A stretch of DNA of 64,000 bases from Oscillospiraceae bacterium (lineage in GTDB: Bacteria > Bacillota > Clostridia > Oscillospirales > CAG-272), in NCBI GenBank assembly GCA_015063845.1, contig SVTJ01000010.1:9846-73845 (forward strand). Reading direction: 5' to 3'. A program made the translations under genes and the position numbers. This document shows positions 25,254 to 44,223 of this stretch, piece after piece (the stretch's first letter is position 1; every line of letters begins with the position of its first letter). Below the pieces are notes generated by a model that saw only the letters and a program-made list of their open reading frames with translations, searched no databases and was not told where the DNA came from.

Positions 25254-25262
25254 AAATTGTTT

Positions 25263-26429: not shown

Positions 26430-26443
26430 GTTTTGTTCCTCTT

Positions 26444-27742
26444 TTATTTTCCGAGCATTTCCTTAACGATAGGATCTATCAAGCCATTAATGATCTGCGC
26501 GTATCTGGTATATCCTTGATCGTCGGGGTGTAGGCCGTCGGGGTACACAATATCAAAGCTCTTTTGTGTTTCCTTAAACATATTGAGGTGATCAAGTCCA
26601 AGCTTTGTAGCAGCAGCCTTTTGATATCCGCGAATATACGTTGACATTGCGTCTTCAAAAGAATTATACGCTATAGGGCAGTTGAGAAGCGCAATTCTCA
26701 TATTGCCGTTCTTAGCCCTAAGATCGTTTACTATTTCTTCGCAGCTATCTATAAAGGTTTTCTTGTAAGAAGCCGTACCAAAATCATGGCCCGCCTTAGT
26801 TGCTCGTGCTTCATTCGAATCGTTAGTTCCAAGCATTATAAGCGCAAGGTCTATGTTAGGAGCATTGTTCATACAAGGCTGATAGTAATTGCATGCTGTC
26901 CATGCGTGGTTGGTTTCAGGTACACCGTCATTGTTTTCGTCCCATTTAAAATCAGTTATCATCGTTCTTCCGCCAAGACCGTAATTGTAAACGACCATAT
27001 CCTTCCAAGCAATTCTCTGAAGAACTGCGGGATAAGCGACGATATCACGACGAATGCTGTCGGAAACGGAAGACGTATAACCCGAAGGCTTGCTTCCGTT
27101 CGTAAGGCTATCGCCGATACAACCTACAACAAGCATATTGGCCTTTGCTCTTACGAGATATCCGGAGTTCACGTTCGCCTGCTCGGCGTTTTGCGCGAGA
27201 ACGTTGGCAATGAAGTCCTCTGCCGCGTGCCACGTAGCTCCGTAGCTGTTACCGCAAATGACTATCTTTCCGTTGTTTTCTCTGAAAACGTAGTCCTTGA
27301 CCGAGCTGAATGAGCTCAGCAATGTGTCAACAAGACCTCTGTTGGTAGAGCCGATAATTATCTCCTTATTGCCCTTCGGCTGCTCTTCGTCTCTTACCAC
27401 CTTGACGGTAGCGCCGAAGTGTGTCTTTATAAGCGCGGCGAGATTTTCAGCCGTCTGCTTATCATACTCGGTGTCCTGAGTTACAAGAGAAGGGTACTGC
27501 GCATAAACCGCTCTGTCGGGATTATACGCATAAACTATGGTGTACTCCGAAATATCAGTTCCTTTGATCTTAAGCGACGTAGGAATGATAGGGGGAGCTT
27601 CCTCCTCGGAAGGAGGAGTGGTATTATTATCCGTATTGCCGTCCGCAGGAGCATCGGTGACGGGTGCTTCCGTTTTATCGCAAGCAACCGCCATCGACAT
27701 TGCCATAACAAGGACAAGCATAAGTGCTATAAGCCTTTTCAT
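26444..27742 (-). CDS. SGNH esterase lipoprotein, paralog 3
   Basis: Lipobox AVA-C; shared N-terminal module; GDSLT, GLGG, MLGTND, DGLHP. Confidence 0.88.
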   Translation of the reverse strand: MKRLIALMLVLVMAMSMAVACDKTEAPVTDAPADGNTDNNTTPPSEEEAPPIIPTSLKIKGTDISEYTIVYAYNPDRAVYAQYPSLVTQDTEYDKQTAENLAALIKTHFGATVKVVRDEEQPKGNKEIIIGSTNRGLVDTLLSSFSSVKDYVFRENNGKIVICGNSYGATWHAAEDFIANVLAQNAEQANVNSGYLVRAKANMLVVGCIGDSLTNGSKPSGYTSSVSDSIRRDIVAYPAVLQRIAWKDMVVYNYGLGGRTMITDFKWDENNDGVPETNHAWTACNYYQPCMNNAPNIDLALIMLGTNDSNEARATKAGHDFGTASYKKTFIDSCEEIVNDLRAKNGNMRIALLNCPIAYNSFEDAMSTYIRGYQKAAATKLGLDHLNMFKETQKSFDIVYPDGLHPDDQGYTRYAQIINGLIDPIVKEMLGK

Positions 27743-27756
27743 AATCACTGCCTCTT

Positions 27757-29004
27757 TTATTTAGCGAGTATATCTTTTACTATGGGGGCGATCAGACCGT
27801 CAACGATCTGTGCGTACTTTGTATATCCCGTATCCGAGGGATGAAGTCCGTCGGGATAATCTGTACTCGTTGTCTTGTTCATCGTTTCCTTATACATATC
27901 AAGGTGGTGAAGTCCGAGCTTCTGAGCCGCTGCCTTCTGATAAGGACGGATATAAAGCATCATATCCGCCTCAAAAGAATGATAGGATACGGGACAGTTG
28001 AGCAACGCGATCTCCATATTAGAATTCTTTGCCTTGAGCTCGTTTACTATCTTTTCGCAGCTATTAATAAACGTATTCTTATAAGCTGTCGTTCCAAAAT
28101 TGTAGCCTGCATCCTTTGCGCGGCTAGAATTGGAGTCGTTTGTTCCAAGCATTATAAGCGCAAGGTCTATATTAGCCGCGTTATCCATACAAGGCTGATA
28201 GTATGTAGAAGAGGTCCAGCCGTGGTTACCCGAACCGTCGGTCCAAACGAAATTCTCTATCATAGTTCTTCCGCCCTGACCGTAGTTGTATACGACCATA
28301 TCCTTCCACTCGATACGCTGAAGCACTGCGGGATACGAAACTATCGCTCTGCGTGTGCTGTTGTCGGTTATGGTAGTACCCTTCGAGCCGCTTCCGTTTG
28401 TAATGCTATCGCCGATGCAACCGACAACTACCATTTTTGCCTTTGCTGACAAAGAATAGCCTGCTTTTACCTCAGCGACTGCCGCGTTCTGCGTGAGAAG
28501 ATCCGCTATAAAATCCTCTGCCGCGTGCCAAGTAGCTCCGTAGCTCTTTCCGCAAATTACTATTTTTCCACCGTTTTCCTTAACAGCGTAGTCCTTGACC
28601 GATGTAAACGAGCCAAGCGTTACGTCAACAAGACCTCTGTTGGTCATGCCGATAATTATCTCCTTATCGCCCTTTGCCTGCTCCTCGTCTCTTGCCACCT
28701 TAACGGTAGCGCCGAAATTAGTCTTTATGAGAGCGGCAAGGTTTTCAGCAGTCTGCTTATCGTACTCGGTATCCTGAGTTACAAGCTCGGGATACTGCGC
28801 ATAAAACGCTCTGTCGGGATTATACGCATAAACTATTGTATATTCGGAAATATCCACGCCGTTTATCTTAGCCGCGGTGGGGGTTATTGGGGCTTGCTCT
28901 TCCTCTGCCGCAGGAGCATCAGGCTGCGGAGCTTCGCTATCCGCGCATGCTACCAAAGCAAACGAGAGAATAAGCGCGAGCAATATAGAAACAATTTTTT
29001 TCAT
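27757..29004 (-). CDS. SGNH esterase lipoprotein, paralog 2
   Basis: Lipobox LVA-C; GDSIT, GQGG, MLGTND, DGLHP. Confidence 0.88.
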   Translation of the reverse strand: MKKIVSILLALILSFALVACADSEAPQPDAPAAEEEQAPITPTAAKINGVDISEYTIVYAYNPDRAFYAQYPELVTQDTEYDKQTAENLAALIKTNFGATVKVARDEEQAKGDKEIIIGMTNRGLVDVTLGSFTSVKDYAVKENGGKIVICGKSYGATWHAAEDFIADLLTQNAAVAEVKAGYSLSAKAKMVVVGCIGDSITNGSGSKGTTITDNSTRRAIVSYPAVLQRIEWKDMVVYNYGQGGRTMIENFVWTDGSGNHGWTSSTYYQPCMDNAANIDLALIMLGTNDSNSSRAKDAGYNFGTTAYKNTFINSCEKIVNELKAKNSNMEIALLNCPVSYHSFEADMMLYIRPYQKAAAQKLGLHHLDMYKETMNKTTSTDYPDGLHPSDTGYTKYAQIVDGLIAPIVKDILAK

Positions 29005-29020
29005 TGTGTTCTATCTCCTT

Positions 29021-30325
29021 TTATTGTTTGCCAAGCATTTGGTTCACGATAGGAGTTATCATGGAATAAACTCCCTCTGCGTACTTTGCATATCCCTCGT
29101 CCGTAGGATGAAGGTCGTCGGGATAATCTGACTTCTGTGTATTATTCTTTGTATATGTATACATATCAAGAAGGTCAAGACCCAACTGCTGAGCTGCCTT
29201 TGCCTGATACTTACGAATGTATCCTTCTGCGGTAGGCTCAATATTCGAGCTGAATGCTATCGGGCAATTGAGAAGAGCTACGCGAACGTTAGCATTCTTT
29301 GCCTTAAGCTCGTTAACGATGTTTTTACAGCTGTTTATAAATGCCTGCTCATAAGCTCCGCCGAGCTCAAACGTGTATCCTGCCGCGGTACTTCTGGTCT
29401 TACTCGAGTCGTTTGTTCCAAGCATTATAAGAACAAGGTCGAGATTCTTTGCATTTGCCATGCACTTATCGTGCTCTTCGGTCTTTATCCAAGCGCGGTC
29501 ACCATCGAGCTTGCCGTCGCTATTATCGTCCCAGCAGTGGTTCTCGGTCATAGTTCTTCCGCCCTTACCGTAGTTGTAAACGACCATATCCTTCCAAGCC
29601 ATTCTCTGGAGAACTGCGGGATAAGGAACGATATCCGATCTCATACCGCTGTCAACCTTAGATTCATAGTTCTTTGTGGATTTTGTTCCGAACGTAAGGC
29701 TATCGCCTATACAGCCAACAACGATAATATTTGCCTTTGCCTTAAAGGAATATCCGCTCTCTATGTTTACGTCGTTGCTCGACATACCCATACAAAGCTC
29801 AACAAACTTCTCGGCAGCCTGCCATGTAGCGCCGTAAGAAGCGCCTACAATAATGAGCTTGCCGTTCTTCTCCTGAATGCACATATCCTTATCGTTTGCC
29901 GCATTGTAAGCAGCAAGCGCCTGACCCTCAAGGCCTCTGGCTGTATTTCCTATAATTATTTCCTTGTCAGTTGCCGCCTTACCGTCGGTAACGATGCTGA
30001 GCTTTGCGCCGAAATTCTTCTCTATAAGCGCAGCGAGATTTTGTGCTGTCTGCTTATCGTATTCGGTATCCTGCTTTACAAGTCCCTTTGCACTGCTGTT
30101 AACAATGCTATACTTGTATGCATCTGGGTTCTTTGCGTACACGATCTTATATTCGGAAATGTCAACACCGTTGATCTTCAGCGTCTTCTGCTGTACGGGG
30201 GTCTCCTCATTGGTCGTGTCTCCGTTAGCCGCGGGGGCTTCGGGAGCGGGCGTCTCTGTGTTGTTACAAGCAACAAGAGAGAGCATGAATATAAGTGCGA
30301 GTATAAGCGCAATTATTTTTTTCAT
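29021..30325 (-). CDS. SGNH esterase lipoprotein, paralog 1
   Basis: Lipobox LVA-C; GDSLT, GKGG, MLGTND, DDLHP. Confidence 0.88.
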   Translation of the reverse strand: MKKIIALILALIFMLSLVACNNTETPAPEAPAANGDTTNEETPVQQKTLKINGVDISEYKIVYAKNPDAYKYSIVNSSAKGLVKQDTEYDKQTAQNLAALIEKNFGAKLSIVTDGKAATDKEIIIGNTARGLEGQALAAYNAANDKDMCIQEKNGKLIIVGASYGATWQAAEKFVELCMGMSSNDVNIESGYSFKAKANIIVVGCIGDSLTFGTKSTKNYESKVDSGMRSDIVPYPAVLQRMAWKDMVVYNYGKGGRTMTENHCWDDNSDGKLDGDRAWIKTEEHDKCMANAKNLDLVLIMLGTNDSSKTRSTAAGYTFELGGAYEQAFINSCKNIVNELKAKNANVRVALLNCPIAFSSNIEPTAEGYIRKYQAKAAQQLGLDLLDMYTYTKNNTQKSDYPDDLHPTDEGYAKYAEGVYSMITPIVNQMLGKQ

Positions 30326-30345
30326 TTGTTTTGCTTCTCCTAACA

Positions 30346-31683
30346 TTAAATATTAAAATTCAGGTCGAGCCTGTATACTCTTCTTGGATTTGTTTTGCCA
30401 CTGCAATTAAAGCCTGCATAAAAAGCTCCGTCGTACCAAAACACGTTTTCTATCTCGTACGTAAGTGCTATTGTAAACTGCTTTACAAGCGTTCCCGTGG
30501 TCTTATCGTAAACTCGGATCACGTTGTTTTTCAACGACCCCGCGGGAGACTGGGAATAGTAGATGTAAACGTCATCACAGTCAACTCCCTGCGCCGTATG
30601 GCCAACTCCGCCACCGTCAAGGCGCTTTATAAGTCTGAGATTTTCATCAAGTATCAAAAGACCGTATCCGTTGACCTTATAGTTGCTCTCCGCGCAAGAA
30701 TAAGTATTGGATATCGGATCATACGCGATACCGAAGCAACCGATAGTGTGATTCGTAATGGTTCCCGTTCCTGTAACGGCAAGCGACTTAGGGCTGACAA
30801 ACGACACGTTGAAGGTGTTTATCGAGCACCACGCCACCACAAAGCGGTCATGCTTTGAGTCATACGTCATATCATTCGCGTGAGCTACGCTGATTATCGG
30901 GCCTGTCTTTACGACCTCATTGGTCTTGGGATCCACCTTGACCACACGTGTCTGGTCATTCGCATTATCAGTTCCGTCTGTTATAAGAAAATAGAAATAT
31001 TCTCCATCGGTGCAGCCGCCCTGTATAAGTGTAAGCGTTTTTTGTGAGTCTCCGTCACGCTGAGCCTCTAACTCCTGTACCAATGTGGGAGTAAGCACAT
31101 CGGATACTACGTTCTCTCCGAGTGAAAGATAAAGAGCCGCAGAGGGCGTTCCCTTTTGCGAATAACTAAAGTTCTTATCAAGCGTGAACAGCTTTCCCGA
31201 GTCCTTGGCTCCTATACAGTTATCAATAAAATACAGTATACCCTCAAATACGTAGTCGTCGTTGTATCCCTTGATAACTATCTTAGTTCCCTTGGTGCTG
31301 ATTATGAATGATGTCTTGGGGCAGCTGATCTCGGCGGTTTCCGCTCTGTTGGTCTCTCCGAGCAATATCTCATAGTCCTCGTTTGTTGCCGCCGTGCCGT
31401 CATTTATCACACCGACCGTACAGCCCGTTTTTTCAGAAATAGCATTCTTTAGCTTTTCAGCAAACACACCGTACATTGCCTTTGCGTCCTTGGGATAGAC
31501 AATGGTGAACTGCGTAGTAAGAAGCTCAAAAGGATTTACCTGAGGTACATCTGCGCTCTCTTCTTGCTTGGGAGCGTCGCCCGTCGGCTCTGTTCCGTCT
31601 GCTTGTATCGTATCGTCCTTATCGCATGCCGCAAACGAAAGAAGCATCAACAATGCCAATATTAACGACAAAACTTTCTTCAT
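30346..31683 (-). CDS. Lipoprotein: shared N-terminal module plus putative beta-propeller domain
   Basis: Lipobox FAA-C; QGGCTDG, HANDMTYD, QGVDCD, EIEN. Confidence 0.8.
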   Translation of the reverse strand: MKKVLSLILALLMLLSFAACDKDDTIQADGTEPTGDAPKQEESADVPQVNPFELLTTQFTIVYPKDAKAMYGVFAEKLKNAISEKTGCTVGVINDGTAATNEDYEILLGETNRAETAEISCPKTSFIISTKGTKIVIKGYNDDYVFEGILYFIDNCIGAKDSGKLFTLDKNFSYSQKGTPSAALYLSLGENVVSDVLTPTLVQELEAQRDGDSQKTLTLIQGGCTDGEYFYFLITDGTDNANDQTRVVKVDPKTNEVVKTGPIISVAHANDMTYDSKHDRFVVAWCSINTFNVSFVSPKSLAVTGTGTITNHTIGCFGIAYDPISNTYSCAESNYKVNGYGLLILDENLRLIKRLDGGGVGHTAQGVDCDDVYIYYSQSPAGSLKNNVIRVYDKTTGTLVKQFTIALTYEIENVFWYDGAFYAGFNCSGKTNPRRVYRLDLNFNI

Positions 31684-31708
31684 ACGCAGTCCTCCTTATA
31701 AATCAATC

Positions 31709-33199
31709 TCAGTTTTTCTCTACCAGCGTCATCTCATATACGTCGCCCGTTTTTTCGCGACTGTTATCGAAGGTTATAATAAACTTATCGTCCTTTATAA
31801 ACAGATTTGCGCCGGAAGCGACCTTGGGTATCGCGATCTTCTTGACAAAATCGCCGTCCCAATCGTACACCCAAAGCCAATTATGTCTTGTATTGGATTG
31901 CAGGAAATAGATATACTTGTTGTCGCACTCCATTCCGTGTCTTACGTATCCGTCAAGACCGCGAAGTCTCTTTACGTATCCCCAGTCCTTATCGAACACG
32001 TCAGAGTCGTATCCGCTGTTTCCAACGATAAATCTCTCGTTCTTCTTGTCGTAGGCAATACCGTACTGAATCACGCGTATTTCAAGCTCTCTTGTCTCCA
32101 CGACCTCAAGGGTGTCCGCATTTACAAACGATGCGTTCTTATCGCCGTGCGTTACAACAAGCAGATTTTTGTTGGGGTCATACGCGATGTCCGTTGCTTT
32201 TCCTAAGCTGAGCGCCTCGGACTTAGCGACCACCGTCCAGCTCTGCGTATCGACCTTTACAAGCTTTGTTCTCGACTTATCCGCATCGACTCTTTCTGCT
32301 ATCGAGTAGTAAGCGTACGTTCCGTCGCTTGCTCCTCCGCGGATAGCGCAAGTCTCAAAACCCTCAATTGCCGTGGGCAAAACCAGCTTTTTCTCAAGTA
32401 TAGCCTCAAGCTCACGGGATCCTGCGTCTCTGATGATCTCGGGAATAGTTTTGCTCTTCTTGGGTTTTCTCGTAAGCGTCATCTCATAGATGTCGCCCGT
32501 CTGATCTTTGAAATTATTGAATGCCGCGATAAACTTATCACCTCTTATAAAGAGGTTCTCGCTCTCGCCTACCATAGGCACGGTGAACTTCTTAAGATAA
32601 TTACCGTCCCAATCGTATACCCATATCCAATTGTTGCGCTTGCCCGTATGGAAGAAGTAAATAAACTCGTCGTCACACTCCATTCCCTGCTTGGTATATC
32701 CGTCCTGACCTTCATAGGTCTTGATAAGCTCAAAATCGGAATTTGTTATACCGATATCGTAGCAAAGGCTCTTTCCAATGGCGTACTGATCTCTTTTTGC
32801 GTTGTATGCCATACTGTACTGTCCGCCCGTGGTAAGCTCACGTACCTCGAGCTCCTCAAGAGTGTCAGGATCAACGAAGGAAATTCTCTTGTTGCAGTGA
32901 CAAACCACCACAACTCCTCTCTTAGAATCGTAGGTCACGTCATTTGCGTGCGCCCACTTAAAGCCCTGTCTTTGCGCGACTATTTCCCAGGTTTCGAGGT
33001 CTATCTTGTACATTCTGCTAAGCTCCTCGCCTGTGTTGCCGCCCTCGTTGATTATATAGTAGGCGTACTTTCCGTTAGTTCCGCCGCCCTGCATATAGCA
33101 CTTTTTGTAGCCCTCAACGAACGTGGGAATGCTGAGTTTCTTTTCGATAGTCACCTCTATCTCATCGCCGTCAAGCTCTCTTATGATGTCACTTATCAT
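31709..33199 (-). CDS. Protein with two tandem putative beta-propeller domains (no signal peptide)
   Basis: Internal duplication; first copy has intact QG/HAND/QG/ESE motifs, second is degenerate. Confidence 0.8.
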   Translation of the reverse strand: MISDIIRELDGDEIEVTIEKKLSIPTFVEGYKKCYMQGGGTNGKYAYYIINEGGNTGEELSRMYKIDLETWEIVAQRQGFKWAHANDVTYDSKRGVVVVCHCNKRISFVDPDTLEELEVRELTTGGQYSMAYNAKRDQYAIGKSLCYDIGITNSDFELIKTYEGQDGYTKQGMECDDEFIYFFHTGKRNNWIWVYDWDGNYLKKFTVPMVGESENLFIRGDKFIAAFNNFKDQTGDIYEMTLTRKPKKSKTIPEIIRDAGSRELEAILEKKLVLPTAIEGFETCAIRGGASDGTYAYYSIAERVDADKSRTKLVKVDTQSWTVVAKSEALSLGKATDIAYDPNKNLLVVTHGDKNASFVNADTLEVVETRELEIRVIQYGIAYDKKNERFIVGNSGYDSDVFDKDWGYVKRLRGLDGYVRHGMECDNKYIYFLQSNTRHNWLWVYDWDGDFVKKIAIPKVASGANLFIKDDKFIITFDNSREKTGDVYEMTLVEKN

Positions 33200-33212
33200 T
33201 TTTGTTCCTCTT

Positions 33213-33968
33213 TTATTTCTTAGGTGTAACCTTCATTACGTAGATATGTGCCGTTCTATCCTTATGCACGTTGAATGAGCCTATAAGCTCGTCTCCTCTA
33301 AAGAACAGGTGCTCGCTCTCGCCTACCATCGGCACTTTTATCTTACCGTAATACTTGCCGTCCCAATCGTAGACAAATATCCAGTTATAGCGACAGCCTG
33401 TCTGGAAGAAGTAGATAAAATCGTCGTCACATTCAATGCCCTGCTTTACGTGACCGTCCTCACCCTCAATGTCGTAAAGAGGATTGAAATCCTCGTCAAG
33501 AACTGCAAGGTCGTACGTTGCGGTCTTACCAACGACATACTGATTTCTCTTTGCGTTATACGCCATTGCAAAATGTCTTGTGGAGATACTCTTTACCTCG
33601 ATAAGCTTAAGAGTATCGGGATCTATAATGGACATGTCGTGTGCGTCCACGTTACAATGAGAAACGAGCAATCTATGATGCTTTGCGTCATAAGCTACGT
33701 CGTTTGCGTGGCACATATAAAAATCATGCGCCTCTTCAACTATTTCCCACTTATCAAGATCTACTTTTATTATTTTGCTTCTGACTTCCGCGGTAGAGCC
33801 GTGCTCGTTCATTACGAAATAGCCGTACTTTCCGTCTGTTACGCCGCCCTGCAAGCCCATGGTTTTGTAGTGTTCGTCCACGCTGTTAAGTGTCAGCTTA
33901 GGCTCAAGAGTGACCTCAAGTCCGTCACAACCGTATCTCTTAATAAGTTCACTAACTGCTGTACTCAT
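33213..33968 (-). CDS. Single putative beta-propeller protein (no signal peptide)
   Basis: QGGVTDG, HANDVAYD, QGIECD, ESEH; start after GAGG. Confidence 0.8.
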   Translation of the reverse strand: MSTAVSELIKRYGCDGLEVTLEPKLTLNSVDEHYKTMGLQGGVTDGKYGYFVMNEHGSTAEVRSKIIKVDLDKWEIVEEAHDFYMCHANDVAYDAKHHRLLVSHCNVDAHDMSIIDPDTLKLIEVKSISTRHFAMAYNAKRNQYVVGKTATYDLAVLDEDFNPLYDIEGEDGHVKQGIECDDDFIYFFQTGCRYNWIFVYDWDGKYYGKIKVPMVGESEHLFFRGDELIGSFNVHKDRTAHIYVMKVTPKK

Positions 33969-34070
33969 AATATTTTCCTCGTTAAAATTTTTGCTTTCTT
34001 TGTACAAAAGGGCAGCAAAAAACCGTTTCAGTTTTCTGCCGCCCTCCATTCTTTTTATATAAGAATTAAA

Positions 34071-35540
34071 TCAGAATGACAACTGATAAAGAAGTCTCTC
34101 TCCGTTGGAGCAGTTAAATCCTGCCCAGAAGCTGTTGTCATACCAGAATATGTGCTCGATCTCATCAGGAAGATCGATAGTAAGTGTGCAAATGTAATTG
34201 CCGTCATAGTCATACACGTTGACTATATTCATCACGTCTATAACACCGTATGTTTCAGACGTCTTAGCGTTGTTCGGCGATGCGGTATAATAGATGTACT
34301 TGGAATCACAGTGAATACCCTGAGATACGTATCCCATGCTTATTCCCTTGAATTCCTTTACCTTTTGATACGCAGTCGCTGTTTTAGCGTTCTTTGCAAT
34401 GATTATAGGATAACCGTTTATTGCATATTTGCTGCCCGAGAATACCATGCGGTTTCCAACCTCATCATAGTCTATCGCGAAGAATGCCTGCGAGAAAGAG
34501 GGAGAGGATGTAACCTTAAGAGTATTCATATCAATGTACGATACTGTTGTAGCGTCAACCGAGCACCAAGCAACAACGAGTCTGTTGTACTTGGAATCAT
34601 ACGTAAGGTCATTGGAGTGAGCAACGCTTATGATCGGACCTATCTGAACTATTTCCATAGTTTTGGGATCCATCTTTATAACGCGGGTCTCATCTGCCAC
34701 TCCGTATGCCGCATCAGCCGCTCCGTCTTTGGGGTTGGTAAGAAGGAAGTAGAAATACTTTCCGTCGGTACAACCGCCCTGAATATTGGCAATGGTTCTC
34801 GCGTCTTTGCTATCAAAATACTGACCGAACTTATATACCTGCTTAGTGGTGAGAGCTATTGTCTTACCTGCAAAGGTCTTACCTGTGGCTTTAAAAGCAT
34901 CTGCATCACTGGAAGAAGAAAACAGCTGGAACGTCTTATTCTTCTTCTCAAGTCTGTCGATATATGCGAATGCCGCATTCTCGGGAGACTCGGTATAAGA
35001 GTAGTCTGTGTTGATATTGAGAAGAGTTCCCGCGGAAGAACTACCGATGCAATTATCTATGAAATAGAACAATCCCATCGTTGTGTAGTACTGGCTCGAG
35101 CCCTTGATGACGACCTTTTTACCTACTACCTTGATAACAAAGCTATTTTCAGGGCACTCAGTAAGTGCGGTCTCAAGACGGTTGGTGCCACCAAGGAGTA
35201 TCTCATAATTGTCGTTTTTGATCTCAGTAGAGGTGTTACCCTTCTCGAAATCGGTTGCGGCGGAAAGAGTTACTCCCGTCTTGTTGGCGATAGTCTTGAT
35301 AAGAGAAGGAATGTGTTTGTTATAATACGCTTCTTCCGCATCAGGACAAATGATCTTTATCGCCGTGTTATTTATGTCGGCATACAACCCCGGGGGGAGC
35401 TGCTCGACAGTTCTGTCCGTATCGGTCGTTCCGTCTGCCGCAGGTGCATCGGGGGTGATGGTATCCTGAGTACAGGATACCATCATAACAAGCACCAGAA
35501 TAAGGCAAACGATCGCCGAAAATAGTTTCTTGTTTTTCAT
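34071..35540 (-). CDS. Lipoprotein: shared N-terminal module plus putative beta-propeller domain
   Basis: Lipobox MVS-C; QGGCTDG, HSNDLTYD, QGIHCD, EIEH. Confidence 0.8.
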   Translation of the reverse strand: MKNKKLFSAIVCLILVLVMMVSCTQDTITPDAPAADGTTDTDRTVEQLPPGLYADINNTAIKIICPDAEEAYYNKHIPSLIKTIANKTGVTLSAATDFEKGNTSTEIKNDNYEILLGGTNRLETALTECPENSFVIKVVGKKVVIKGSSQYYTTMGLFYFIDNCIGSSSAGTLLNINTDYSYTESPENAAFAYIDRLEKKNKTFQLFSSSSDADAFKATGKTFAGKTIALTTKQVYKFGQYFDSKDARTIANIQGGCTDGKYFYFLLTNPKDGAADAAYGVADETRVIKMDPKTMEIVQIGPIISVAHSNDLTYDSKYNRLVVAWCSVDATTVSYIDMNTLKVTSSPSFSQAFFAIDYDEVGNRMVFSGSKYAINGYPIIIAKNAKTATAYQKVKEFKGISMGYVSQGIHCDSKYIYYTASPNNAKTSETYGVIDVMNIVNVYDYDGNYICTLTIDLPDEIEHIFWYDNSFWAGFNCSNGERLLYQLSF

Positions 35541-35557
35541 ATTTTCCTCAAACCAAG

Positions 35558-37099
35558 TTAAGCAGCCTTCTTAGCCTCAAGTCCCTCGAATGCTGTGTTC
35601 AAGTTACCAACGTTCTTCTTGAGTGCGGTGTTAACAGATGTGATAGCGGTAGAAGCGGGGTTCTGTCCACCTGCGCTCTTACCGTCGATAACGATATTTC
35701 TCAAGAATGTTGTAACACCGCTTCCTATACCCTCGTTAAGAACGCCTGTGTAGATAGCTGTAAGAGGCATGCAAGATCCCTCATAGATGATGTCGAGCAT
35801 TTCCTGAGTATCAACGTCCTGAGCGAAACGGTACTGCATGATGTTGTTGTAGTACTCGTCAACTACGATCTTGTAGGACTCGGAAGCGAGGCACTCGAGA
35901 ACTGCGCCAACCATCTGGATACGATCGTCGGATACAGGCTGGAGAATACCAAGTGCGGATACCTGGTCCTGAACGCCCGTGTAGTAAGCGCCCTGGTCCT
36001 TATTGAGCATAGGCATAGGAACTATACCGTACTCAATATCACCGAGCTGCTGAGTTGTTCTCTCGATGTTGTAGATAACTGTGTTGGACATCGCTGCTCT
36101 CTTGTTGTAGAAGGTCTCGTGAGCAGTAGAGATGTTCGTAAAGCTATCATCATCATATGTTGCTACGAAGCAAGAAGCGTCTGAGTAGAGATCGATTATA
36201 GCCTGAGAAGCAGATACGACCTTACTCTTTGCAGTCTTGTTGTTTCCAACGTACTGGAATGCGTTGTTAGCATCCTTAGCAACGAGAGGCGCGTTAAGGC
36301 TTACCCAATAGGGGTCGATACTTACCTTAAGACCGCCAGCCATACCGTAAATAGCGGTATCGGGGTTAGCAGTACCTGTTGCAAGTCTTCTGGACATGTT
36401 GAGCTGGTACTCCATTGTCCATTCCTTATTTCTGACTACGTCGTAAAGATTAGCCTCCTGCTTATTGTTAAGCATGGTCTTGTTGAATATAGTACAGTTA
36501 AGGCAACGGTAGATAGAAAGAACTATAGAACCGTTAGCGATGTACTGACGGTCAGCGCCGTAGGACAGAGCGGAGTTAAAGCCCTGAGACCAGTACAGCT
36601 TGTTGAGATTAAGGTATGTGCAGTTATGGAGGTTACGGAAGTAACCGTTGTTAACGGAAGCAGTGGTAAGGTATGTAGCTCCAACTGCAACGTCATAAGT
36701 AGCGTCGCCAGCCTCTGCAGCCGTACGGATCATTGTGTTGATCTTGGAAATATCGGACGCAGACTCCTGGTTAAGGATTATGTTGAGGTTAACGCCAAGT
36801 CTGGACTTAACGGTCTCATTTCTCTTGAAAACTGCGCTCTCGATAGCGTTTGCGGAAGCACCCTCTGCGTAGAACTCAGCCTTAACGGTGTCCTTTGCGG
36901 AGCAAAGAATGGTTACCGTCTGACCGCCGTAGTTAAGCTCAGCGGGAAGCTCGTCTCCGTAAGGATCGTTGTTAACAACGGGAGGGGGAGCGTCAGTCGT
37001 TCCGTCATCGTCCTTCTTTTTGCCCTTACATGCAACGAGCATAGCTCCGAGCATGATAATAGCAAGAAGGAGAGACAAAATTCTAAGTGTGTTTTTCAT
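35558..37099 (-). CDS. Extracellular solute-binding lipoprotein (sugar SBP-like)
   Basis: Lipobox LVA-C; AVFKRN...LGVNL, FNK, WT, YGIVPMP and GAVLE segments typical of clostridial family-1 SBPs. Confidence 0.8.
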   Translation of the reverse strand: MKNTLRILSLLLAIIMLGAMLVACKGKKKDDDGTTDAPPPVVNNDPYGDELPAELNYGGQTVTILCSAKDTVKAEFYAEGASANAIESAVFKRNETVKSRLGVNLNIILNQESASDISKINTMIRTAAEAGDATYDVAVGATYLTTASVNNGYFRNLHNCTYLNLNKLYWSQGFNSALSYGADRQYIANGSIVLSIYRCLNCTIFNKTMLNNKQEANLYDVVRNKEWTMEYQLNMSRRLATGTANPDTAIYGMAGGLKVSIDPYWVSLNAPLVAKDANNAFQYVGNNKTAKSKVVSASQAIIDLYSDASCFVATYDDDSFTNISTAHETFYNKRAAMSNTVIYNIERTTQQLGDIEYGIVPMPMLNKDQGAYYTGVQDQVSALGILQPVSDDRIQMVGAVLECLASESYKIVVDEYYNNIMQYRFAQDVDTQEMLDIIYEGSCMPLTAIYTGVLNEGIGSGVTTFLRNIVIDGKSAGGQNPASTAITSVNTALKKNVGNLNTAFEGLEAKKAA

Positions 37100-37225
37100 T
37101 GTTTTTCCTCTCAAATAAATTTGAAATTCGGCATTTATGCCCCGCTTGAATATTCAGCCATGTAGCGAGCACCCAAAGCGGGGCAAAAACGTCAATTATT
37201 TGTTGAGCCTAATTAAAATTGTAAA

Positions 37226-39370
37226 TTAGTCCTCGCGCTTCTTTGCGACAAATCCGCAAGCTGCGCCTGCAACAGCGATGATAGCTACTGCGCCAACACC
37301 GATAGAGTTCTTACAACCCTTCTTCTCAGTGGTTGCATTGTCTGCGGGTGCGTCGTTTGTAGCTGCGTTGTTGTCGGTGGTGGTGTTGTCGGTTGCACCT
37401 GTATCTGTGCTTCCGTCGCCCTCGCCGCCTTCGCCTTCGCCTTCGCCTTCGTCACCGGAGTCGATAACGGGAGCCTGAGGCTCGGGAGCGGTGTAGGTGT
37501 GCGCGATGTTAAGAGCGTTGCCGTTAGCGAGACATCCTGTTGTTGCTACGCTTCCCTCAAGGAAAGGATTGTCAATAACAGGAATAGCTCCTGTAAATGC
37601 GCAGTTCTCGAGCTTGAGAACGAGCTTGTAGGAGTCAACTGTTGCGTTGTAATCCTCGTGATCGGGAGCTACCGATGTGTTGACAGCGGTCTTAGCGATC
37701 TTGAATGCATAGTTGCCCTCAGCAGTACCTGCTACGAGAGTGAGGTTCTTTACTGTGATCTCACCGGAAGAAACGGTAAGTCCGTTTGTTGCGGATGTGA
37801 TTGTCTTGTTGTTACCATCAATAGTCATCTTCTGACCTCTGTTGAGGATCTCGGTGGGAGTGATGGTTATATCCTTAAGAAGTGTTACTGTAGAATCTTT
37901 ATCAGCAACACCGTTGATTGCCTGTGCGAATGCGGGAACAGTAGCTGTTCCGTAAGAACCTGTGCTGGAGTGTGTGTAATCCTGGATGTAGTAGTTCTTG
38001 CCGTTGGAGTTAGTAACCTTAACTGTTGCCTTTGCGGGAGCAGTTGAGGGTTCCTCGTACTCAACAGTCCACTTTGTTACGTTCGTGAAGCTCTTGCCGT
38101 AAAGATCAACATTGGAAACTGTGCTTTCGGTTGTCTTGTACTGGTCAGCGGGAACGTGCTGGATAGAGGTTGTAGACTCGGAAGCAATTGCCGTTATGTT
38201 ATACTCACGGCTGGAATTTGTCGAATAGAAGTTACCGCCGTAGATAGCTGTGTTTACCTTAGAAACGTCAGCGTCGTTTACAGGGTTACCGCTGCTGTAG
38301 TTACCGATAAGCTGAGACTTGTTAGCGTTAACGTCAGCTGTCATGAAGGAGTAGAAGTCTCCGCCAAAGATATTGATAAATCCGTAGTCATTACCCGAGG
38401 AGATACCGCCGAGGAGAACGAAGTCTCTCTGAGTACCGAAAGCAGTACCGTCAGCGAGCTTTGCCTTACCCGAGAAGCAAGCAAACGTACCGCCGTGAAT
38501 GTTAACAAGTCCGCCTGCGTCGCCACGGATAACACAACCGTCGGTGTTAGTGTTTGCCTTCTTGGTTGTATCATCATCATTGTACTGACCTGCTGTCTTG
38601 TTTATGATGGGCTTGATGAACAAACCGCCATAAACGGTAAGAGAAGCGGTTACGTTAGAAAGGTTTGTCTGCTTGGTTTCGTTCTTAACACGTGCAACGA
38701 ACGAGCAGTCCTCACCTACGAAGTTACCGTCATAAACTACCATGTTACCTCTGTCAACTGCGAGAACCTGACCGGAAACGCCGTATGCCTTGTATGTACC
38801 GCCGTTGATGTAAACAGTGGAACGAGTTGTTGCGCTGAGCTGAACTGCAATGGAGTTGAGCTCTGCGGAAGACTTAGCTCTTGCGTAAGGTGCTCTGCCC
38901 TCTGTTGTCTGACCTGCTGCAGTACCGCCGGTGTATACGTTTACGTTGTTAAGGTAAACCTGAGAACCCGACTTTACGCTGATACCGCTACCCATAGTAA
39001 TGAGGGTAAGGTCGTTGATCTCGAGATAGTTGGAAGTTGTTGTCAAAAGATAGTTCTTATTTGCGAGTGATGTAATAGGGGAAGAAATGGTGTGGTTGTT
39101 ACCGTTAATTACCCACTTAGATGTTATGCCTGTTTCTTCACTGTTCTGGAAGATAAGGGCAAAGGTTGAGAAATCCTTAATGACGTTTACTGTACCGCCT
39201 GTAGGGCAAGCAAGAATAACGTCGAGGATGTTTTCTTCAGTTACCTCTACGCCGTTAACTGTTGCAACGGTGTCAGCTGCGTATTCAGCAGCGGAAGCGG
39301 GAACTGAGAAGAGTCCTACGAGTGCTGTAAGAACGAGCACGAGGGACATTACGAATGATAATTTTTTCAT
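37226..39370 (-). CDS. Cell-surface protein, beta-helix-like, with acidic linker and C-terminal membrane anchor
   Basis: Sec signal (ASA-A), repeated I(Y/N/H)GG(T/N/D)F units, GEGEG linker, KKGC-hydrophobic-KKRED tail. Confidence 0.8.
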   Translation of the reverse strand: MKKLSFVMSLVLVLTALVGLFSVPASAAEYAADTVATVNGVEVTEENILDVILACPTGGTVNVIKDFSTFALIFQNSEETGITSKWVINGNNHTISSPITSLANKNYLLTTTSNYLEINDLTLITMGSGISVKSGSQVYLNNVNVYTGGTAAGQTTEGRAPYARAKSSAELNSIAVQLSATTRSTVYINGGTYKAYGVSGQVLAVDRGNMVVYDGNFVGEDCSFVARVKNETKQTNLSNVTASLTVYGGLFIKPIINKTAGQYNDDDTTKKANTNTDGCVIRGDAGGLVNIHGGTFACFSGKAKLADGTAFGTQRDFVLLGGISSGNDYGFINIFGGDFYSFMTADVNANKSQLIGNYSSGNPVNDADVSKVNTAIYGGNFYSTNSSREYNITAIASESTTSIQHVPADQYKTTESTVSNVDLYGKSFTNVTKWTVEYEEPSTAPAKATVKVTNSNGKNYYIQDYTHSSTGSYGTATVPAFAQAINGVADKDSTVTLLKDITITPTEILNRGQKMTIDGNNKTITSATNGLTVSSGEITVKNLTLVAGTAEGNYAFKIAKTAVNTSVAPDHEDYNATVDSYKLVLKLENCAFTGAIPVIDNPFLEGSVATTGCLANGNALNIAHTYTAPEPQAPVIDSGDEGEGEGEGGEGDGSTDTGATDNTTTDNNAATNDAPADNATTEKKGCKNSIGVGAVAIIAVAGAACGFVAKKRED

Positions 39371-39484
39371 TTTGGTGTTCTCCTTTTTTGTTGATTTATA
39401 TTCAAACTCCACGGCAATTCCGACCTTGCCGCAGAACCTAAATCAAGTTTTGGAAAGTGCGCCGTATCGGCGCGGTGGATATCC

Positions 39485-39513
39485 TCCCGCGCCTCGAAAG
39501 CGAGGCGCGGGAG
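39485..39513. terminator. Strong GC hairpin (terminator or mRNA stabiliser)
   Basis: CTCCCGCGCCTCG-AAAG-CGAGGCGCGGGAG; no clear minus-strand U tract. Confidence 0.45.
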
Positions 39514-39526
39514 TTGATTTTAGAAA

Positions 39527-40369
39527 TTACTTGACAATGAGCTGAGCGATGTAGTCAGTGCCTGCATCCCCATTGAATGCCGCGTAGAACGCGCCATCGT
39601 ACCAGAAAATACTTTCTATTTCGTCAACATTGTCAACGTAAAGCAGGCAAACTCGTTCACCACCCCAGGTATAGACCGTGATGATGTTCTTTGCCGCATT
39701 TGTTATTCCCGACTGGGAGTAATAGATATAGTGCGAGTCACAGAATATACCTTGCGCGGTATATCCAAGCCTTACGGTTTCAAACTCACTTGTGCAGGTC
39801 TTAAGCTCTCCGTCGTAGACCATCAGCGCAAAGTTATACTTTGACTGACCTGTCTTAGTAACGACGTATCTGTCTCCGATCTCGCTATAAGCCATACTGA
39901 AAAACGACTTGCTGAGAGTCTTCTGGGACACCGCGTTGAGCGTAGACGGATCTATGAGCGTATACGTAGTACCCATATGAATAGCGTAGAGATAGCCCGT
40001 GTTGGGGTTGTAGGTCAGATCGTTAGCGTGTCCCACGTTAACTATCGGGCCTATCATATCAACCGTCCATGTTTTGGGGTCTATTCTCACAACGCGTGTT
40101 TCATCGTCGTTTCCGTCGGTTTTGAGTGCGTAAACGTAGGTTCCGTCAGTGCAAGAGCCCTGAAGAGACTTCATTGCGCTTCCATCCGCCTGCGTATACT
40201 CACTGTCGACAAACGAGAACTTCGTATCGGTCGTCATATTGACTACCTTGAAGCTTGTCGTCTCGCCCGTTTCGCTGGGCTTCTGCGTGGTATTATCCCC
40301 CGTAGAATCCCAGTCGTAAACGGTAAATGTTTGTTCCTGCGTAGTTTGAGCTTGTGCTAATTCAGACAG
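39527..40369 (-). CDS. Putative beta-propeller domain; frame open up to the TGA of the upstream gene (first ATG at 40237)
   Basis: QGSCTDG, GHANDLTYN, QGIFCD, EIES; 44 sense codons lie between the TGA at 40370-40372 and the ATG. Confidence 0.7.
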   Translation of the reverse strand: MSELAQAQTTQEQTFTVYDWDSTGDNTTQKPSETGETTSFKVVNMTTDTKFSFVDSEYTQADGSAMKSLQGSCTDGTYVYALKTDGNDDETRVVRIDPKTWTVDMIGPIVNVGHANDLTYNPNTGYLYAIHMGTTYTLIDPSTLNAVSQKTLSKSFFSMAYSEIGDRYVVTKTGQSKYNFALMVYDGELKTCTSEFETVRLGYTAQGIFCDSHYIYYSQSGITNAAKNIITVYTWGGERVCLLYVDNVDEIESIFWYDGAFYAAFNGDAGTDYIAQLIVK

Positions 40370-43300
40370 TCATTGAGCAGAGGAGGTTACGATATCCTGT
40401 GCGCATGCTGCCGTTGCATCTATTGTGTAAACGTCAGTGTACTGAATGTGGCCACTGGTCGTCTTTACGTATGCAACTACGTAGAAGTCAACGTCGTTAA
40501 GGTAGTAGTCAGCCTTAAGGTTTGTCAGGTCAAGAACTGCAACAAGCTTGCCGTCCTCGGGAGACCAAGTTGTCTGGTCAGCCTGTCTAACCTTTGTGTA
40601 AAGCTTGTCGGTCGTGCTGGAGGGCGCGCCGTTCTCAACGATGTTCGCAGCAGTGTCAAGATCCTTTGCTATATAGAAGCCAACCTCTGCAAACTCGTCG
40701 TTACCTGCAACTGCCTCGTCAACTACGAAGAGAAGTCTGAGGTCTGTGGAGGTAGAATCGTCAGTTGTACCTGCCTTGATCTGGAAATACTTATCTGTAC
40801 CGAAGTGCTTATCGCCTACGAATACTGTCTGCTCGAAGCCTTCATTTGCAACTATGACCTCTGCCGTATAGTTCTTAACAACAGCCCAAACTGCCTCGGA
40901 AATGCCAAGCTTTGCGTAAGAATCGCTTACGTCGGTCGTGGGAGTCGTAATATTATCAGCGTTCTTGTTGAAGGTACCTCTCTGATATGAGAAAGAGGTA
41001 TCGGTTGAATCAAGGAAGTCATACTTATATGCTCTGATGTCGGTATCGGGAGCTATCCAAATACCGCCGAGTATATTATAGCTATTATTGGAGAATCTGC
41101 TGCTTGTGCTAACTGTAGGAGTTGTCTGAGAGTTCTTGTGTCCTACAATACCGTATCCGCTGGTTGTTTGTTCCGTAGTCTTAACGAATACACCGCCATA
41201 CACTTCCACGTTACCAAGATAACCGTTAGTATTAGAGGTACCTGCCGAGATAGCAGCTCCTGCACCAACTACGAACGTACCGCCGTAGATCTTGAGCGCT
41301 GTGCCATCCTGACCCGCATATGTAGCGGAAACTACAAACGTCTCAGCTGCGATGGTCGTTGCATATCCGTGTCTGATCATCTGAGCATTCTGGTGGGCGC
41401 TATCCATCGTGAATGTACCGCCGTAGATATTAACGTCACATCCGCGAGCCTCAAGAAGTATTTGCTCGCCGGAGTTCTTACGCATGAAGTCACCGCCGTA
41501 AATATTAACGTCAACCTCAAGTCCACGAAGAGTGATCAGCGTATCAGAAGATGTAGTGGTAAGGTTTCCGAACTTACCGCCATAAATGTTTATGTCGGTA
41601 TCGATCGTGTTGTTAGCCTCGGTATTGATATATATGGGTTTATTAGAGCCGGAGAAATCAGCGTCGTAAATATTGATATCAAACGTTCCGCCTGTAATAC
41701 CGGCTGTTGTGTTGAAGCCTGTTGTCGTCTTGAAAGTACCGCCATATACATTTGCGTTCACGGTTCCGCCCGTTATAGTCTTCATGAAATCGAATGCAGT
41801 CGTTCCATTGAACGTTCCGCCGTAGATGTTAGCCGTTGTCGTTCCCGCGGTCGTCGCATCGACAATGAGAAGACTCTTTGTTAAGTTAAACGTACCGTCA
41901 GATATGTCAGCCTTTACCGTTCCTCCGGTGCTTGCATTTACATAGATAAGGCTCTCGGTCAAGTTAAACGTACCGTTCTTTATGGTGATCTCTGTGCTAT
42001 CGCTGTTATCCTGCGCCTTAATATACGCAAACGTGGTAGCGTTAACCTCTCCGCCGTTGAACGTGAACTTTACGGGAGTGCTGTATGTATCTGCACCGTT
42101 GGTGTTGTACATAATGTACGTAGCCCTGAGAACAGAAGTACCGCTTACAGTAATGTTAGCAGCCTTTACAGGATAGTTACCGTTATCGATGTTATACATA
42201 AACATCTTAGAAGTGCCACCACTAAGCTCAACTGTACTGTTGTCTATCTTTATGTTTACTGTACGGGTGTTTTTAGACTGTCTGTTCGCAAACAGGACAC
42301 TCTCAGTAGTTATAACACTACTTCCGTTGAGAATGTTTATGTTATACGTAGACATGCTTCCAAAACTAGCTCCCTTCGTTCCCGAAGGTGCAAACATACC
42401 TCTGGTGTTCAAAGGAGAAGTATCTGTGGAAACATCCGTAGATGCGGTATTGGATACCGACATATAAGTGTTGTCAAGTGTTACCGTATAAGTTGCGGGG
42501 GGAGTAGCTCCCAGACCGATAAGGTTGTTGAAGAAGTCGTTTCTGACTGCTACGCTAGAGCTGTTAACGCCTACGGTCTGACCGAGGTTCATAACGTTCC
42601 TCGTGCCGTTAGCATCGGTAGTCTCGCAATCCTTAAGGTATACGTGCAAGCTCTTAGCCGTGTAGTAAAGCTTGGTACTGAAGAGCTTCGCAAGATCCTG
42701 ATACGTGTTGTCCGTTGTAGAGGTTGCGTGCAATCTCCAACCGTCAAGAGTAAGCTTGACGTCGGTCGTATTCTTGCTTGCATACACGAGGTAGTCAGGC
42801 TTGTTTGCCGTAAAGGTGTTGTTAGGCTTCATGGTAACGTCCAAAGAGGAGTTTGCTCCGGACGAATGAACAAGTCTCGCGGTTGTCTTTGAGCCTTCGT
42901 TTATAATAGTACAACCGTCGAAGGAAAGCTTAATGTTGTCATATTCACATCCAAAAGCCATAATATGCGACGCTGAACCGTGCTTTATAGTTGTGCCAAC
43001 AAAGCTAAGATCCATATGAGCATAGGTAGTTGTGGTCGAATCGGTTGAAGTTCCCCAAGTTCTTACAAGATACTGACCGGAAGCAGTTGCATCCATTTCT
43101 GAATTAGTTACTGTTCCCTTAAGTGTTGCATATATGCTCGAGCTTGAGAAGCCTTGTATATGGAACATCTGTGCGCCTGTGCTCTTGATATATACGTTGT
43201 CGAGATTAACCTCAACAGTTCCTGCTTTAGAAACTACGCCCTCAGAACTAGCTTGCGTAGTACTGTAGAACAGCTTTCCTGAGCCGGTCGACGTAAAGGA

Positions 43301-44209
43301 TGTTCTCTCGTCACCCGTTGCACCTACAGGGCTGGTCGCATTAACAACTACCTTACCGTTACCGCTGTTAAGGAACATAGCACCGTTGCCAACTGTAAGC
43401 TTAGAGCCGTTCGTTACGTTTACGTTAATAACAGTCGTAGCATTATTATTTATCAAGTTAGCAGCTCCGGTATTGATCGTAGCACCGTCAAAGTTTATGG
43501 TGTACTCTTTTCCCTTATAAGTAGCGTTAGGGGCAGCCCAACCCAAGATCCAGGACTTATCATCTTCCGTTCCTCTCTTGAAGCTACACTCACCCTTAAG
43601 GGTTACAGCTCTCGCTATTTCGCTTCTCATTGCGATCGCTGCTGCCGTGTATTTCGTTTCGCTTCCGTTCACATACTCAGGCATCGTTACATTCACGCCA
43701 TCAAGAGTAAGTGCACAGGCTCCACCCATACCGAACAGGGCATTGTTAGCGCCATGGGTATCAGCTACAACAAAATCTACGTTTTCGATCGTGAGATCGT
43801 CACCACCGCCTATCAAACACCAAGCACTCTTAAGAGTTCCTCCGGAAACGTTGATAGTAATTGTGGGATTTCCACTGGTAGCATCGTATGCCTTTATCGT
43901 GGCATTTGCTCTCCAGTTATCGGGAAGAGTTGCTGTCTCCACGATATCATTCAAAATGTAGATCGTGTAATAATCGTCATCATTATCCGTTCCCATTTTG
44001 TATTCGTTAAAAGCTGCCAAAAGCGTGGGGAAAAGCTTTCCGTCTGCTTCTGTGACACCGTCGGGGTATGCACTACCAATGTAAACAGCTATCTGATTGT
44101 CATCTTCAAAAGATGCAGCCGTAGCAGAGAATACACCCGTAGGGATCATGAGTGCGAGCATAACAAACGCAAGTGCAATGCTCAGTACTCTCTTAAATGA
44201 CTTTTTCAT
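40370..44209 (-). CDS. Large secreted Thr/Asn/Gly-rich beta-helix-like surface protein (1279 aa)
   Basis: GGAGG SD, Sec signal MKKSFKRVLSIALAFVMLALMIP...ATA-A, many (V/I)NIYGG(T/D/K)F repeats. Confidence 0.85.
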   Translation of the reverse strand: MKKSFKRVLSIALAFVMLALMIPTGVFSATAASFEDDNQIAVYIGSAYPDGVTEADGKLFPTLLAAFNEYKMGTDNDDDYYTIYILNDIVETATLPDNWRANATIKAYDATSGNPTITINVSGGTLKSAWCLIGGGDDLTIENVDFVVADTHGANNALFGMGGACALTLDGVNVTMPEYVNGSETKYTAAAIAMRSEIARAVTLKGECSFKRGTEDDKSWILGWAAPNATYKGKEYTINFDGATINTGAANLINNNATTVINVNVTNGSKLTVGNGAMFLNSGNGKVVVNATSPVGATGDERTSFTSTGSGKLFYSTTQASSEGVVSKAGTVEVNLDNVYIKSTGAQMFHIQGFSSSSIYATLKGTVTNSEMDATASGQYLVRTWGTSTDSTTTTYAHMDLSFVGTTIKHGSASHIMAFGCEYDNIKLSFDGCTIINEGSKTTARLVHSSGANSSLDVTMKPNNTFTANKPDYLVYASKNTTDVKLTLDGWRLHATSTTDNTYQDLAKLFSTKLYYTAKSLHVYLKDCETTDANGTRNVMNLGQTVGVNSSSVAVRNDFFNNLIGLGATPPATYTVTLDNTYMSVSNTASTDVSTDTSPLNTRGMFAPSGTKGASFGSMSTYNINILNGSSVITTESVLFANRQSKNTRTVNIKIDNSTVELSGGTSKMFMYNIDNGNYPVKAANITVSGTSVLRATYIMYNTNGADTYSTPVKFTFNGGEVNATTFAYIKAQDNSDSTEITIKNGTFNLTESLIYVNASTGGTVKADISDGTFNLTKSLLIVDATTAGTTTANIYGGTFNGTTAFDFMKTITGGTVNANVYGGTFKTTTGFNTTAGITGGTFDINIYDADFSGSNKPIYINTEANNTIDTDINIYGGKFGNLTTTSSDTLITLRGLEVDVNIYGGDFMRKNSGEQILLEARGCDVNIYGGTFTMDSAHQNAQMIRHGYATTIAAETFVVSATYAGQDGTALKIYGGTFVVGAGAAISAGTSNTNGYLGNVEVYGGVFVKTTEQTTSGYGIVGHKNSQTTPTVSTSSRFSNNSYNILGGIWIAPDTDIRAYKYDFLDSTDTSFSYQRGTFNKNADNITTPTTDVSDSYAKLGISEAVWAVVKNYTAEVIVANEGFEQTVFVGDKHFGTDKYFQIKAGTTDDSTSTDLRLLFVVDEAVAGNDEFAEVGFYIAKDLDTAANIVENGAPSSTTDKLYTKVRQADQTTWSPEDGKLVAVLDLTNLKADYYLNDVDFYVVAYVKTTSGHIQYTDVYTIDATAACAQDIVTSSAQ

Positions 44210-44223
44210 TTTTAAAGTCCTCC

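Follow-up and report, generated by a model that had tools for sequence, protein, structure and literature searches.

The receptor-binding proteins (RBPs) of staphylococcal phages carry a platform with a five-bladed beta-propeller, which is held to bind the N-acetylglucosamine (GlcNAc) of wall teichoic acid. For phi11 Gp45, soaking with GlcNAc failed and the site is a modelled one only, in a cavity lined by Gln165, Thr211 and Gln330, plus Met164 and Met329; the propeller is closed by its N-terminal strand (PMC4901313). The members named for the Pfam family of this platform, PF21311 (Phage_RBD_prop), are phi11 Gp45, the 80alpha RBP, P68 Gp17, the NF5 RBP, Bacillus subtilis TagC and Streptomyces factor C. 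The accompanying InterPro name is 'P68 RBP/TagC-like beta-propeller' in a 2025 paper, which treats factor C as a TagC homologue, describes the role of TagC in teichoic acid synthesis as unclear, and presents factor C as a secreted sporulation inducer only (PMC12502532). Neither a ligand-bound structure of a phage platform nor a description of the bacterial family reported here was found in the open literature that was searched. This family was recognised in DNA of an Oscillospiraceae bacterium (assembly GCA_015063845.1, contig SVTJ01000010.1, positions 9,846–73,845 of the forward strand; these 64,000 nucleotides are called the window, and coordinates below are those of the window), where a run of minus-strand genes contains six propeller domains.

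The six paralogous domains, of about 240 residues each, lie in five minus-strand open reading frames (ORFs) at 30346–35540 and 39527–40237, and were located in the C-terminal halves of A445 and D489, in both halves of B496 (B496_n and B496_c), in C278 and in E236 (Table 1). They align over their full length with 26–51% pairwise identity. A profile of the six domains, searched against the genome of the bacterium (1.88 Mb, 96.7% complete), matched exactly these six places at E values of 1e-98 to 3e-108, by which chance is excluded. Five domains, termed canonical, share the motifs QG(G/S)xTDG, H(A/S)NDxxY, QGxxCD and ExE, that is, in the numbering of E236 used throughout, Q26-G, H70-x-N72-D73-x-x-Y76, Q162-G-x-x-C-D167 and E206-x-E208. 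In the sixth, B496_c, the motif sites read R, K-A-T-D, H-G and S-G-A, and the fold-marking Gly, Tyr and Asp residues are retained. The first-pass annotation, made from the letters of the window, had counted six domains in five ORFs, five of them with shared motifs, which both the alignment and the genome search confirmed; the span it had given, 30346–40369, holds all six domains but also takes in two unrelated genes (35558–37114 and 37226–39412).

The AlphaFold2 model of E236, calculated from a six-row alignment (pLDDT 86.2, pTM 0.88), showed 20 strands forming five four-stranded blades, with the propeller closed by the N-terminal strand. The innermost strands were placed at residues 24–30 (blade 1, bearing Q26), 71–77 (blade 2, at H70, N72 and D73), 112–118 (blade 3, with an aromatic residue at 113), 158–166 (blade 4, bearing Q162) and 206–213 (blade 5, bearing E206 and E208). 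The first-pass annotation had rightly called the motifs repeat-spaced: in blades 1, 2, 4 and 5 of the model, they lie on the innermost strand or directly in front of it. AlphaFold2, Foldseek and an exhaustive structural comparison all returned propellers, in agreement with the five blades that had been proposed, and on this modelling the domain is almost certainly a five-bladed beta-propeller.

In the exhaustive comparison, run on the E236 model, the best match was the Xanthomonas glutaminyl cyclase (3mbr; score 21.7, 2.6 over 204 residues), followed by the Myxococcus glutaminyl cyclase (3nok; 20.2), Escherichia coli YjiK (3qqz; 19.6), the phi11 RBP (5efv; 18.0, 3.6 over 223 residues), an endo-arabinanase (8hhv; 18.0), enzymes of the glycoside hydrolase (GH) families GH130 and GH43 (15–17.5) and the NF5 RBP (9m7x; 14.5). 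Foldseek gave TM values of 0.65–0.69 to glutaminyl cyclases. These cyclases (3mbr, 3nok, 3nol, 2iwa) are likewise compact five-bladed propellers of about the same size. As the best structural matches, they and YjiK raise the possibility of an enzyme that does not act on glycans and that might, for example, cyclise the N-terminal Gln of exported proteins or turn over another small molecule. Such a role is nevertheless very improbable: identity in the structural alignments is 8–12%; Glu_cyclase_2, which we take to be the name of the glutaminyl-cyclase Pfam family, was listed neither for the five window proteins (E up to 1) nor among the 14 families listed for 61 family members; SdiA-regulated (PF06977), the family of YjiK, appeared in one of these 61 at E 0.0094, which falls short of membership; and the signal-less copies described below would lack exported substrates. 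The five-bladed glycoside hydrolases and phosphorylases (GH43, GH130 and the endo-arabinanase EndoMA1, 8hhv) appear to have no sequence likeness to the window domains, which are 60–250 residues smaller.

The phage platforms were compared at the level of residues. When those of phi11 Gp45, SAP11, CSA13, P68 and Lactobacillus phage SA-C12 were aligned, Q165 was the consensus residue at its position and G-G-H209-G-T211, Q330-G and E385-P-E387 were invariant, so that the motif order Q..H..QG..EPE, which the first-pass annotation had named for phage proteins, is real. Profile-profile comparison (hhalign) of the 61-member family alignment with the five platforms gave, as the second-ranked result, an in-register alignment over 209 columns (P 5.5e-4, probability 30%) in which Q26 is paired with Q165, H70 with H209, N72 with T211, Q162 with Q330, and E206/E208 with E385/E387 of phi11. 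Three of the phage residues in these pairs, Q165, T211 and Q330, belong to the modelled GlcNAc cavity of phi11. The two groups are alike in having five blades and closure by the N-terminal strand, and by the in-register alignment they may also share the order Q, H, Q-G, E-x-E on inner strands; E-P-E, the form found in the phages, is also the commonest one in the window's family (Pro207 in 46 of the 170 domains introduced below). They differ in the His motif (H-A-N-D against G-G-H-G-T), and the window-family domain is about 60 residues shorter. A phage RBP consists of stem, platform and two towers and forms a trimer, whereas the window proteins (236–496 amino acids) consist of a propeller alone, of two in tandem, or of a lipobox, an N-terminal domain and a propeller. 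The family has no coiled-coil stem, tower domains or phage context, and its members are bacterial lipoproteins, secreted or cytoplasmic proteins, some of them tandem.

Not all results speak for kinship with the platforms. The top-ranked hhalign alignment (probability 78–84%, E 8e-6 to 2e-5) is out of register by three blades, with blades 1–2 of the window's family on blades 4–5 of the phages, so that some of the signal comes from blade likeness of a generic kind. PF21311 reached 15.6 bits in A445 and 13.6 bits in E236, both below the cut-off of 23.7, with no match in the other three propeller proteins, and a whole-genome scan with this model gave no match at E up to 0.1. An hhalign comparison with the single phi11 sequence was not significant (E 0.3). 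No match to E236 was found by tblastn in 50,697 phage records, and PHROGs gave nothing at E 0.001 or better, the best hit (E 0.0021) lying over the signal-peptide region of A445. Profile searches of PDB sequences yielded generic blade likeness only (NHL 'Thin' at E 2.5e-5, YncE at about 1e-3, NF5 Gp17 at 0.2–0.5). On the side of kinship, PF21311 exceeded its cut-off in three of 68 scanned relatives (P0018, 33.4 bits; P0057, 31.2; P0008, 24.1), in one blade each, and it was found at E 0.01 or better in two of the 61 members. Since the family misses the PF21311 threshold and differs in architecture, it was classed as a family in its own right, without a model, within the superfamily of the platforms. 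Taken as a distant branch of the superfamily of the staphylococcal phage RBP platform, Bacillus TagC and Streptomyces factor C, the window domains are likely to be correctly placed; their homology to the PF21311 platform is probably distant. The parallel drawn by the first-pass annotation is supported for the phage platforms in fold and, less firmly, in the in-register Q/H/Q/E-E residues; for TagC the evidence is mixed, as its inclusion follows from the InterPro name and PF21311 also matches in the B. subtilis control genome, whereas the P68 and NF5 papers assign the TagC likeness to the tower subdomains rather than to the propeller. Any link of the window domains to teichoic acid would be one of analogy.

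The family is large. A profile search of 1.84 billion representatives (50% identity clusters) matched 2,428 at a threshold of E 0.001; with stricter thresholds, 1,223 remained at 1e-10 and 354 at 1e-30. In Pfam scans of the five window proteins and 61 members it was captured by no model, nor did any characterised enzyme family match it with confidence, which supports the first-pass annotation in its suggestion that the family could be new. DUF6923 (PF21959) reached 15.5 bits in E236, below its 27-bit cut-off, and E 0.01 or better in two of the 61 members; P0003, a close relative, carries a precomputed PF21959 match. A word-index homologue search gave five near-length and four longer proteins, too few for fusion statistics. 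In samples of one genome per species, matches were seen in 12 of 60 other genomes of the window's taxonomic family at E 1e-5 (two of them weak, partial matches), in seven of 120 of the order at 1e-10 and in none of 300 of the phylum at 1e-10; the other genome of the same genus had no match. The six copies are an expansion, as no other sampled genome had more than two. The duplications are old, since each paralogue has a closer relative elsewhere: in the tree A445 groups with P0008, D489 with P0011 and E236 with P0002 to P0005.

Conservation was examined in 170 domains from the window and the 150 best representatives (50% identity clusters), and as these domains are the top matches of a motif-bearing profile the counts are inflated: 156 retain the whole set Q26, H70, Q162, E206 and E208, 166 retain N72, 154 D73 and 162 Y117, and residue 113 is Tyr or Phe in 127. 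By a crude lipobox and signal-peptide rule, lipoproteins account for 87 domains and signal-peptide proteins for 54, which leaves 29 in proteins of neither kind. The signal-less proteins form three supported clades, all of which keep the pocket residues: B496/C278 with P0014 and P0017 (support 0.958), E236 with P0002 to P0005 (support 1.0), and a third with no window members (support 0.979). In B496 and C278, upstream stop codons and gaps of 13–21 nt leave no room for missed signal peptides. P0017, a signal-less protein of 446 amino acids close to C278, continues after its propeller into a Cys-rich domain of about 195 residues at the C-terminus, for which no Pfam match and no likeness to the propeller profile were found.

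More than one profile match was present in 21 of 157 proteins; two of the second matches are fragments, leaving 19 true tandems. Both domains are canonical in two of these, and the other 17 combine a canonical domain with a variant that has lost His/Glu/Glu. Seven variants read Q-[H/L/I/Q]-N-D-Q-[T/S/N]-Q, with the amides and the Asp kept, both Glu lost (E208 to Gln) and the His often lost. Other variant tandem domains have lost nearly everything except Y76, Y117 and D167. Among the 170 domains, B496_c alone has Q26, H70, Q162, E206 and E208 all exchanged. Other propellers hold Ca or Zn ions in their channel, and the conserved His/Glu/Glu/Asp/Asn could be a structural metal site of that kind, the domain then being a scaffold for protein contacts. 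The site is, however, lost in the partner domains of the 17 tandems, where Y76, Y117 and D167 of the fold persist, and B496_c has none of these metal-site candidates yet scores 334 bits against the family profile. A metal scaffold is scarcely more probable than the cyclase-like role, and both are regarded as less likely explanations.

From the strand positions and the alignment we infer that the conserved residues meet in one cavity, equivalent to that of the phage platform. Each canonical domain would have a single polar pocket at the entrance to its central channel, built by the innermost strands of the blades, to which blade 1 would supply Q26, blade 2 H70, N72 and D73, blade 3 the aromatic residue 113, blade 4 Q162, and blade 5 E206 and E208. 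The pocket may grip a single unit, either a sugar or a sugar phosphate, of a glycan that is of wall type or comes from the diet, with His/Glu/Glu as the putative chemical set and Gln/Asn/Asp/Gln as the binding set, and domains without His/Glu/Glu would be binding-only or structural partners. That the domain has a sugar pocket is reasonably probable. That the site is invariant over so wide a family, and over phages that infect different hosts, points to a shared chemical moiety or to a step of chemistry rather than to a determinant of specificity.

Whether the canonical domains would only bind their sugar or also act on it was weighed on several lines. Catalysis is tentatively and slightly favoured over pure binding, and the explanation as a whole is held no more firmly than this, its boldest step. 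Four points lean towards it: signal-less, presumably cytoplasmic, clades keep the pocket; in the tandem partners it is exactly the ionisable His/Glu/Glu that are gone while the amides remain, which is the pattern of enzyme domains inactivated in nature; in A445 and D489 the propeller fills the slot behind a GH-type N-terminal domain that is held next door by SGNH catalytic domains; and most neighbours in fold are enzymes (glutaminyl cyclases, GH43, GH130, endo-arabinanase).

The N-terminal domain is shared by A445, D489 and the three SGNH lipoproteins according to their alignment, and it is of glycoside-hydrolase type according to its model and fold search. It was likened to the accessory domain of GH115, GH67, GH20, GH84 and GH138, with the difference that what follows it in the window is a propeller or an SGNH domain and not a TIM barrel. 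Pfam traces of it are faint (NAGLU_N at E 0.12 in D489, Glyco_hydro_20b at 1.2e-5 in the relative P0111).

The pocket could instead belong to a non-catalytic lectin or adhesin, which merely binds the sugar unit as proposed for the phage platform, so that the lipoproteins would be held on the cell's own wall polymer, or host or dietary glycans would be captured for the esterases and the 518-residue lipoprotein. We consider this somewhat improbable. The following points speak for it or against catalysis. The nearest characterised relatives, the phage platforms, are known as binders, though even their GlcNAc site is a modelled one. The fold of the N-terminal domain also occurs in wall-anchoring domains. 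In the 68 relatives scanned, the fusion partners are anchor, adhesin or spacer modules (SLH in one, Flg_new in eight, LRR_5 in three, Big_2 in five, and fn3), and no catalytic or carbohydrate-binding module was found, save for the marginal Glyco_hydro_20b of P0111 and GH85_C of P0100. As many as 141 of the 170 domains are in lipobox or signal-peptide proteins by the crude rule. Gene context is not conserved over eight relatives' loci, and SGNH neighbours occur in none of them. Added to this, the conservation counts are inflated by the choice of domains. On the other side, lectin sites usually vary with their ligand, whereas here the five residues are kept in 156 of the 170 domains and across Staphylococcus and Lactobacillus phages, three signal-less clades keep the site, and it is exactly the ionisable residues that the tandem partners lose while keeping the amides.

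It is a further and rather doubtful step that the canonical domains might form a new class of glycan- or phosphoglycan-cleaving enzymes, a new CAZy-type family with a His/Glu/Glu centre shared with TagC, factor C and the phage platforms. If so, the phage 'binding platforms' and TagC, which has long lacked an explanation, would be enzymes too, and the tandem partners naturally inactivated, lectin-like derivatives. What is new in the present family are exported members with a GH-type N-terminal domain common to three adjacent SGNH esterases, three signal-less clades that keep the pocket residues, and tandems (17 of 19) of a canonical and a variant domain.

The features of the gene array are collected in Table 1.

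Table 1. Genes and propeller domains of the minus-strand array, in coordinates of the window.
Feature	Position	Strand	Characteristics
Three paralogous SGNH/GDSL lipoproteins (434, 415 and 441 amino acids)	26444–30346	-	Pfam Lipase_GDSL_2, E 5e-16 to 9e-20
A445, lipoprotein of 445 amino acids	30346–31683	-	Lipobox signal; N-terminal domain ~31132–31503; canonical propeller ~30346–31113
B496, signal-less protein of 496 amino acids	31709–33199	-	Two propellers (ORF and domain alignment)
B496_c, C-terminal propeller of B496	31709–32455	-	Fold residues retained; pocket residues all exchanged (R, K, T, H, S, A)
B496_n, N-terminal propeller of B496	32456–33199	-	Canonical Q-H-N-D-Q-E-E
C278, signal-less protein of 278 amino acids	33213–34049	-	Canonical single propeller (ORF and alignment)
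D489, lipoprotein of 489 amino acids	34071–35540	-	N-terminal domain ~34902–35360; canonical propeller ~34071–34865
Lipoprotein of 518 amino acids	35558–37114	-	17 nt upstream of D489
Surface protein of 728 amino acids	37226–39412	-	Unrelated to propellers
E236, signal-less protein of 236 amino acids	39527–40237	-	Canonical single propeller; protein used for the AlphaFold2 model
Surface protein of 1312 amino acids	40370–44308	-	

According to the ORF list, the minus-strand run extends over 26444–44308. The SGNH genes lie directly downstream of A445 with gaps of at most 16 nt, and the intergenic gaps of at most 25 nt from the 518-residue lipoprotein gene to the last SGNH gene suggest a single transcription unit. 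The true start of C278 may be its internal Met 27. Scans for promoters and terminators did not rise above shuffled sequence (34 against 28.5±6.8, and 19 against 17.3±3.9, respectively). A perfect 13-bp GC-rich hairpin at 39484–39513, between the genes of E236 and the 728-residue protein, may be a bidirectional terminator dividing two transcription units.

The 518-residue lipoprotein had no match in Pfam, NCBIfam or PDB; that it might be a solute-binding protein was a guess by eye that found no support from any tool. Its homologues (21–26% identity) occur within 8 kb of a propeller gene in three of the eight relatives' loci. The combination of an SGNH domain with an N-terminal domain of GH115/GH67/GH20 type was not seen in these eight loci. 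In one relative's locus (L020, 7218–8357, minus strand), the gene of an NAGPA phosphodiester glycosidase overlaps that of a propeller lipoprotein by 7 nt, and in another (L011, 7658–9052, plus strand) a GHL10 glycosyl-hydrolase-like gene abuts one; both are single cases, and they fit a wall-glycopolymer theme.

Both surface proteins, of 728 and 1312 residues, have signal peptides and long Thr/Gly/Asn-rich repeats of the '(I/V)YGG.F' type, and neither gave any Pfam or NCBIfam match; at the end of the shorter one stand a GEGEGEG stretch and a membrane helix. The array is flanked by a GH2-family glycosidase gene (22894–25212, plus strand) and an AraC-type regulator gene (45185–46027, plus strand). 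Two overlapping ORFs on opposite strands (25257–26519, plus, 420 amino acids; 25263–26429, minus, 388 amino acids) both lack a family match, and gidA, gidB, parA and parB lie near the window. In one metatranscriptome library five short contigs were found, all on the genes of the 518- and 728-residue proteins and none on the propeller genes, for which the library is uninformative. Six metagenome runs from animal faeces contain the window stretch with hardly a letter changed, and five of these six may be the source of the window itself; fragments 95–99% alike to it occur in two gut runs of another study.

As a probable sister family of at least 2,428 clusters to the phage platforms, these propellers offer soluble single-domain members of 236 amino acids, natural 'mutant' partners and cytoplasmic forms, by which the question of lectin or enzyme and the identity of the ligand become directly testable. 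If the canonical domains are catalytic, they would add a new enzyme family, from gut Bacillota, to those that act on glycans, and the reading of phage adsorption to teichoic acids would change; if they bind only, they would be a new, compact and widespread lectin module.

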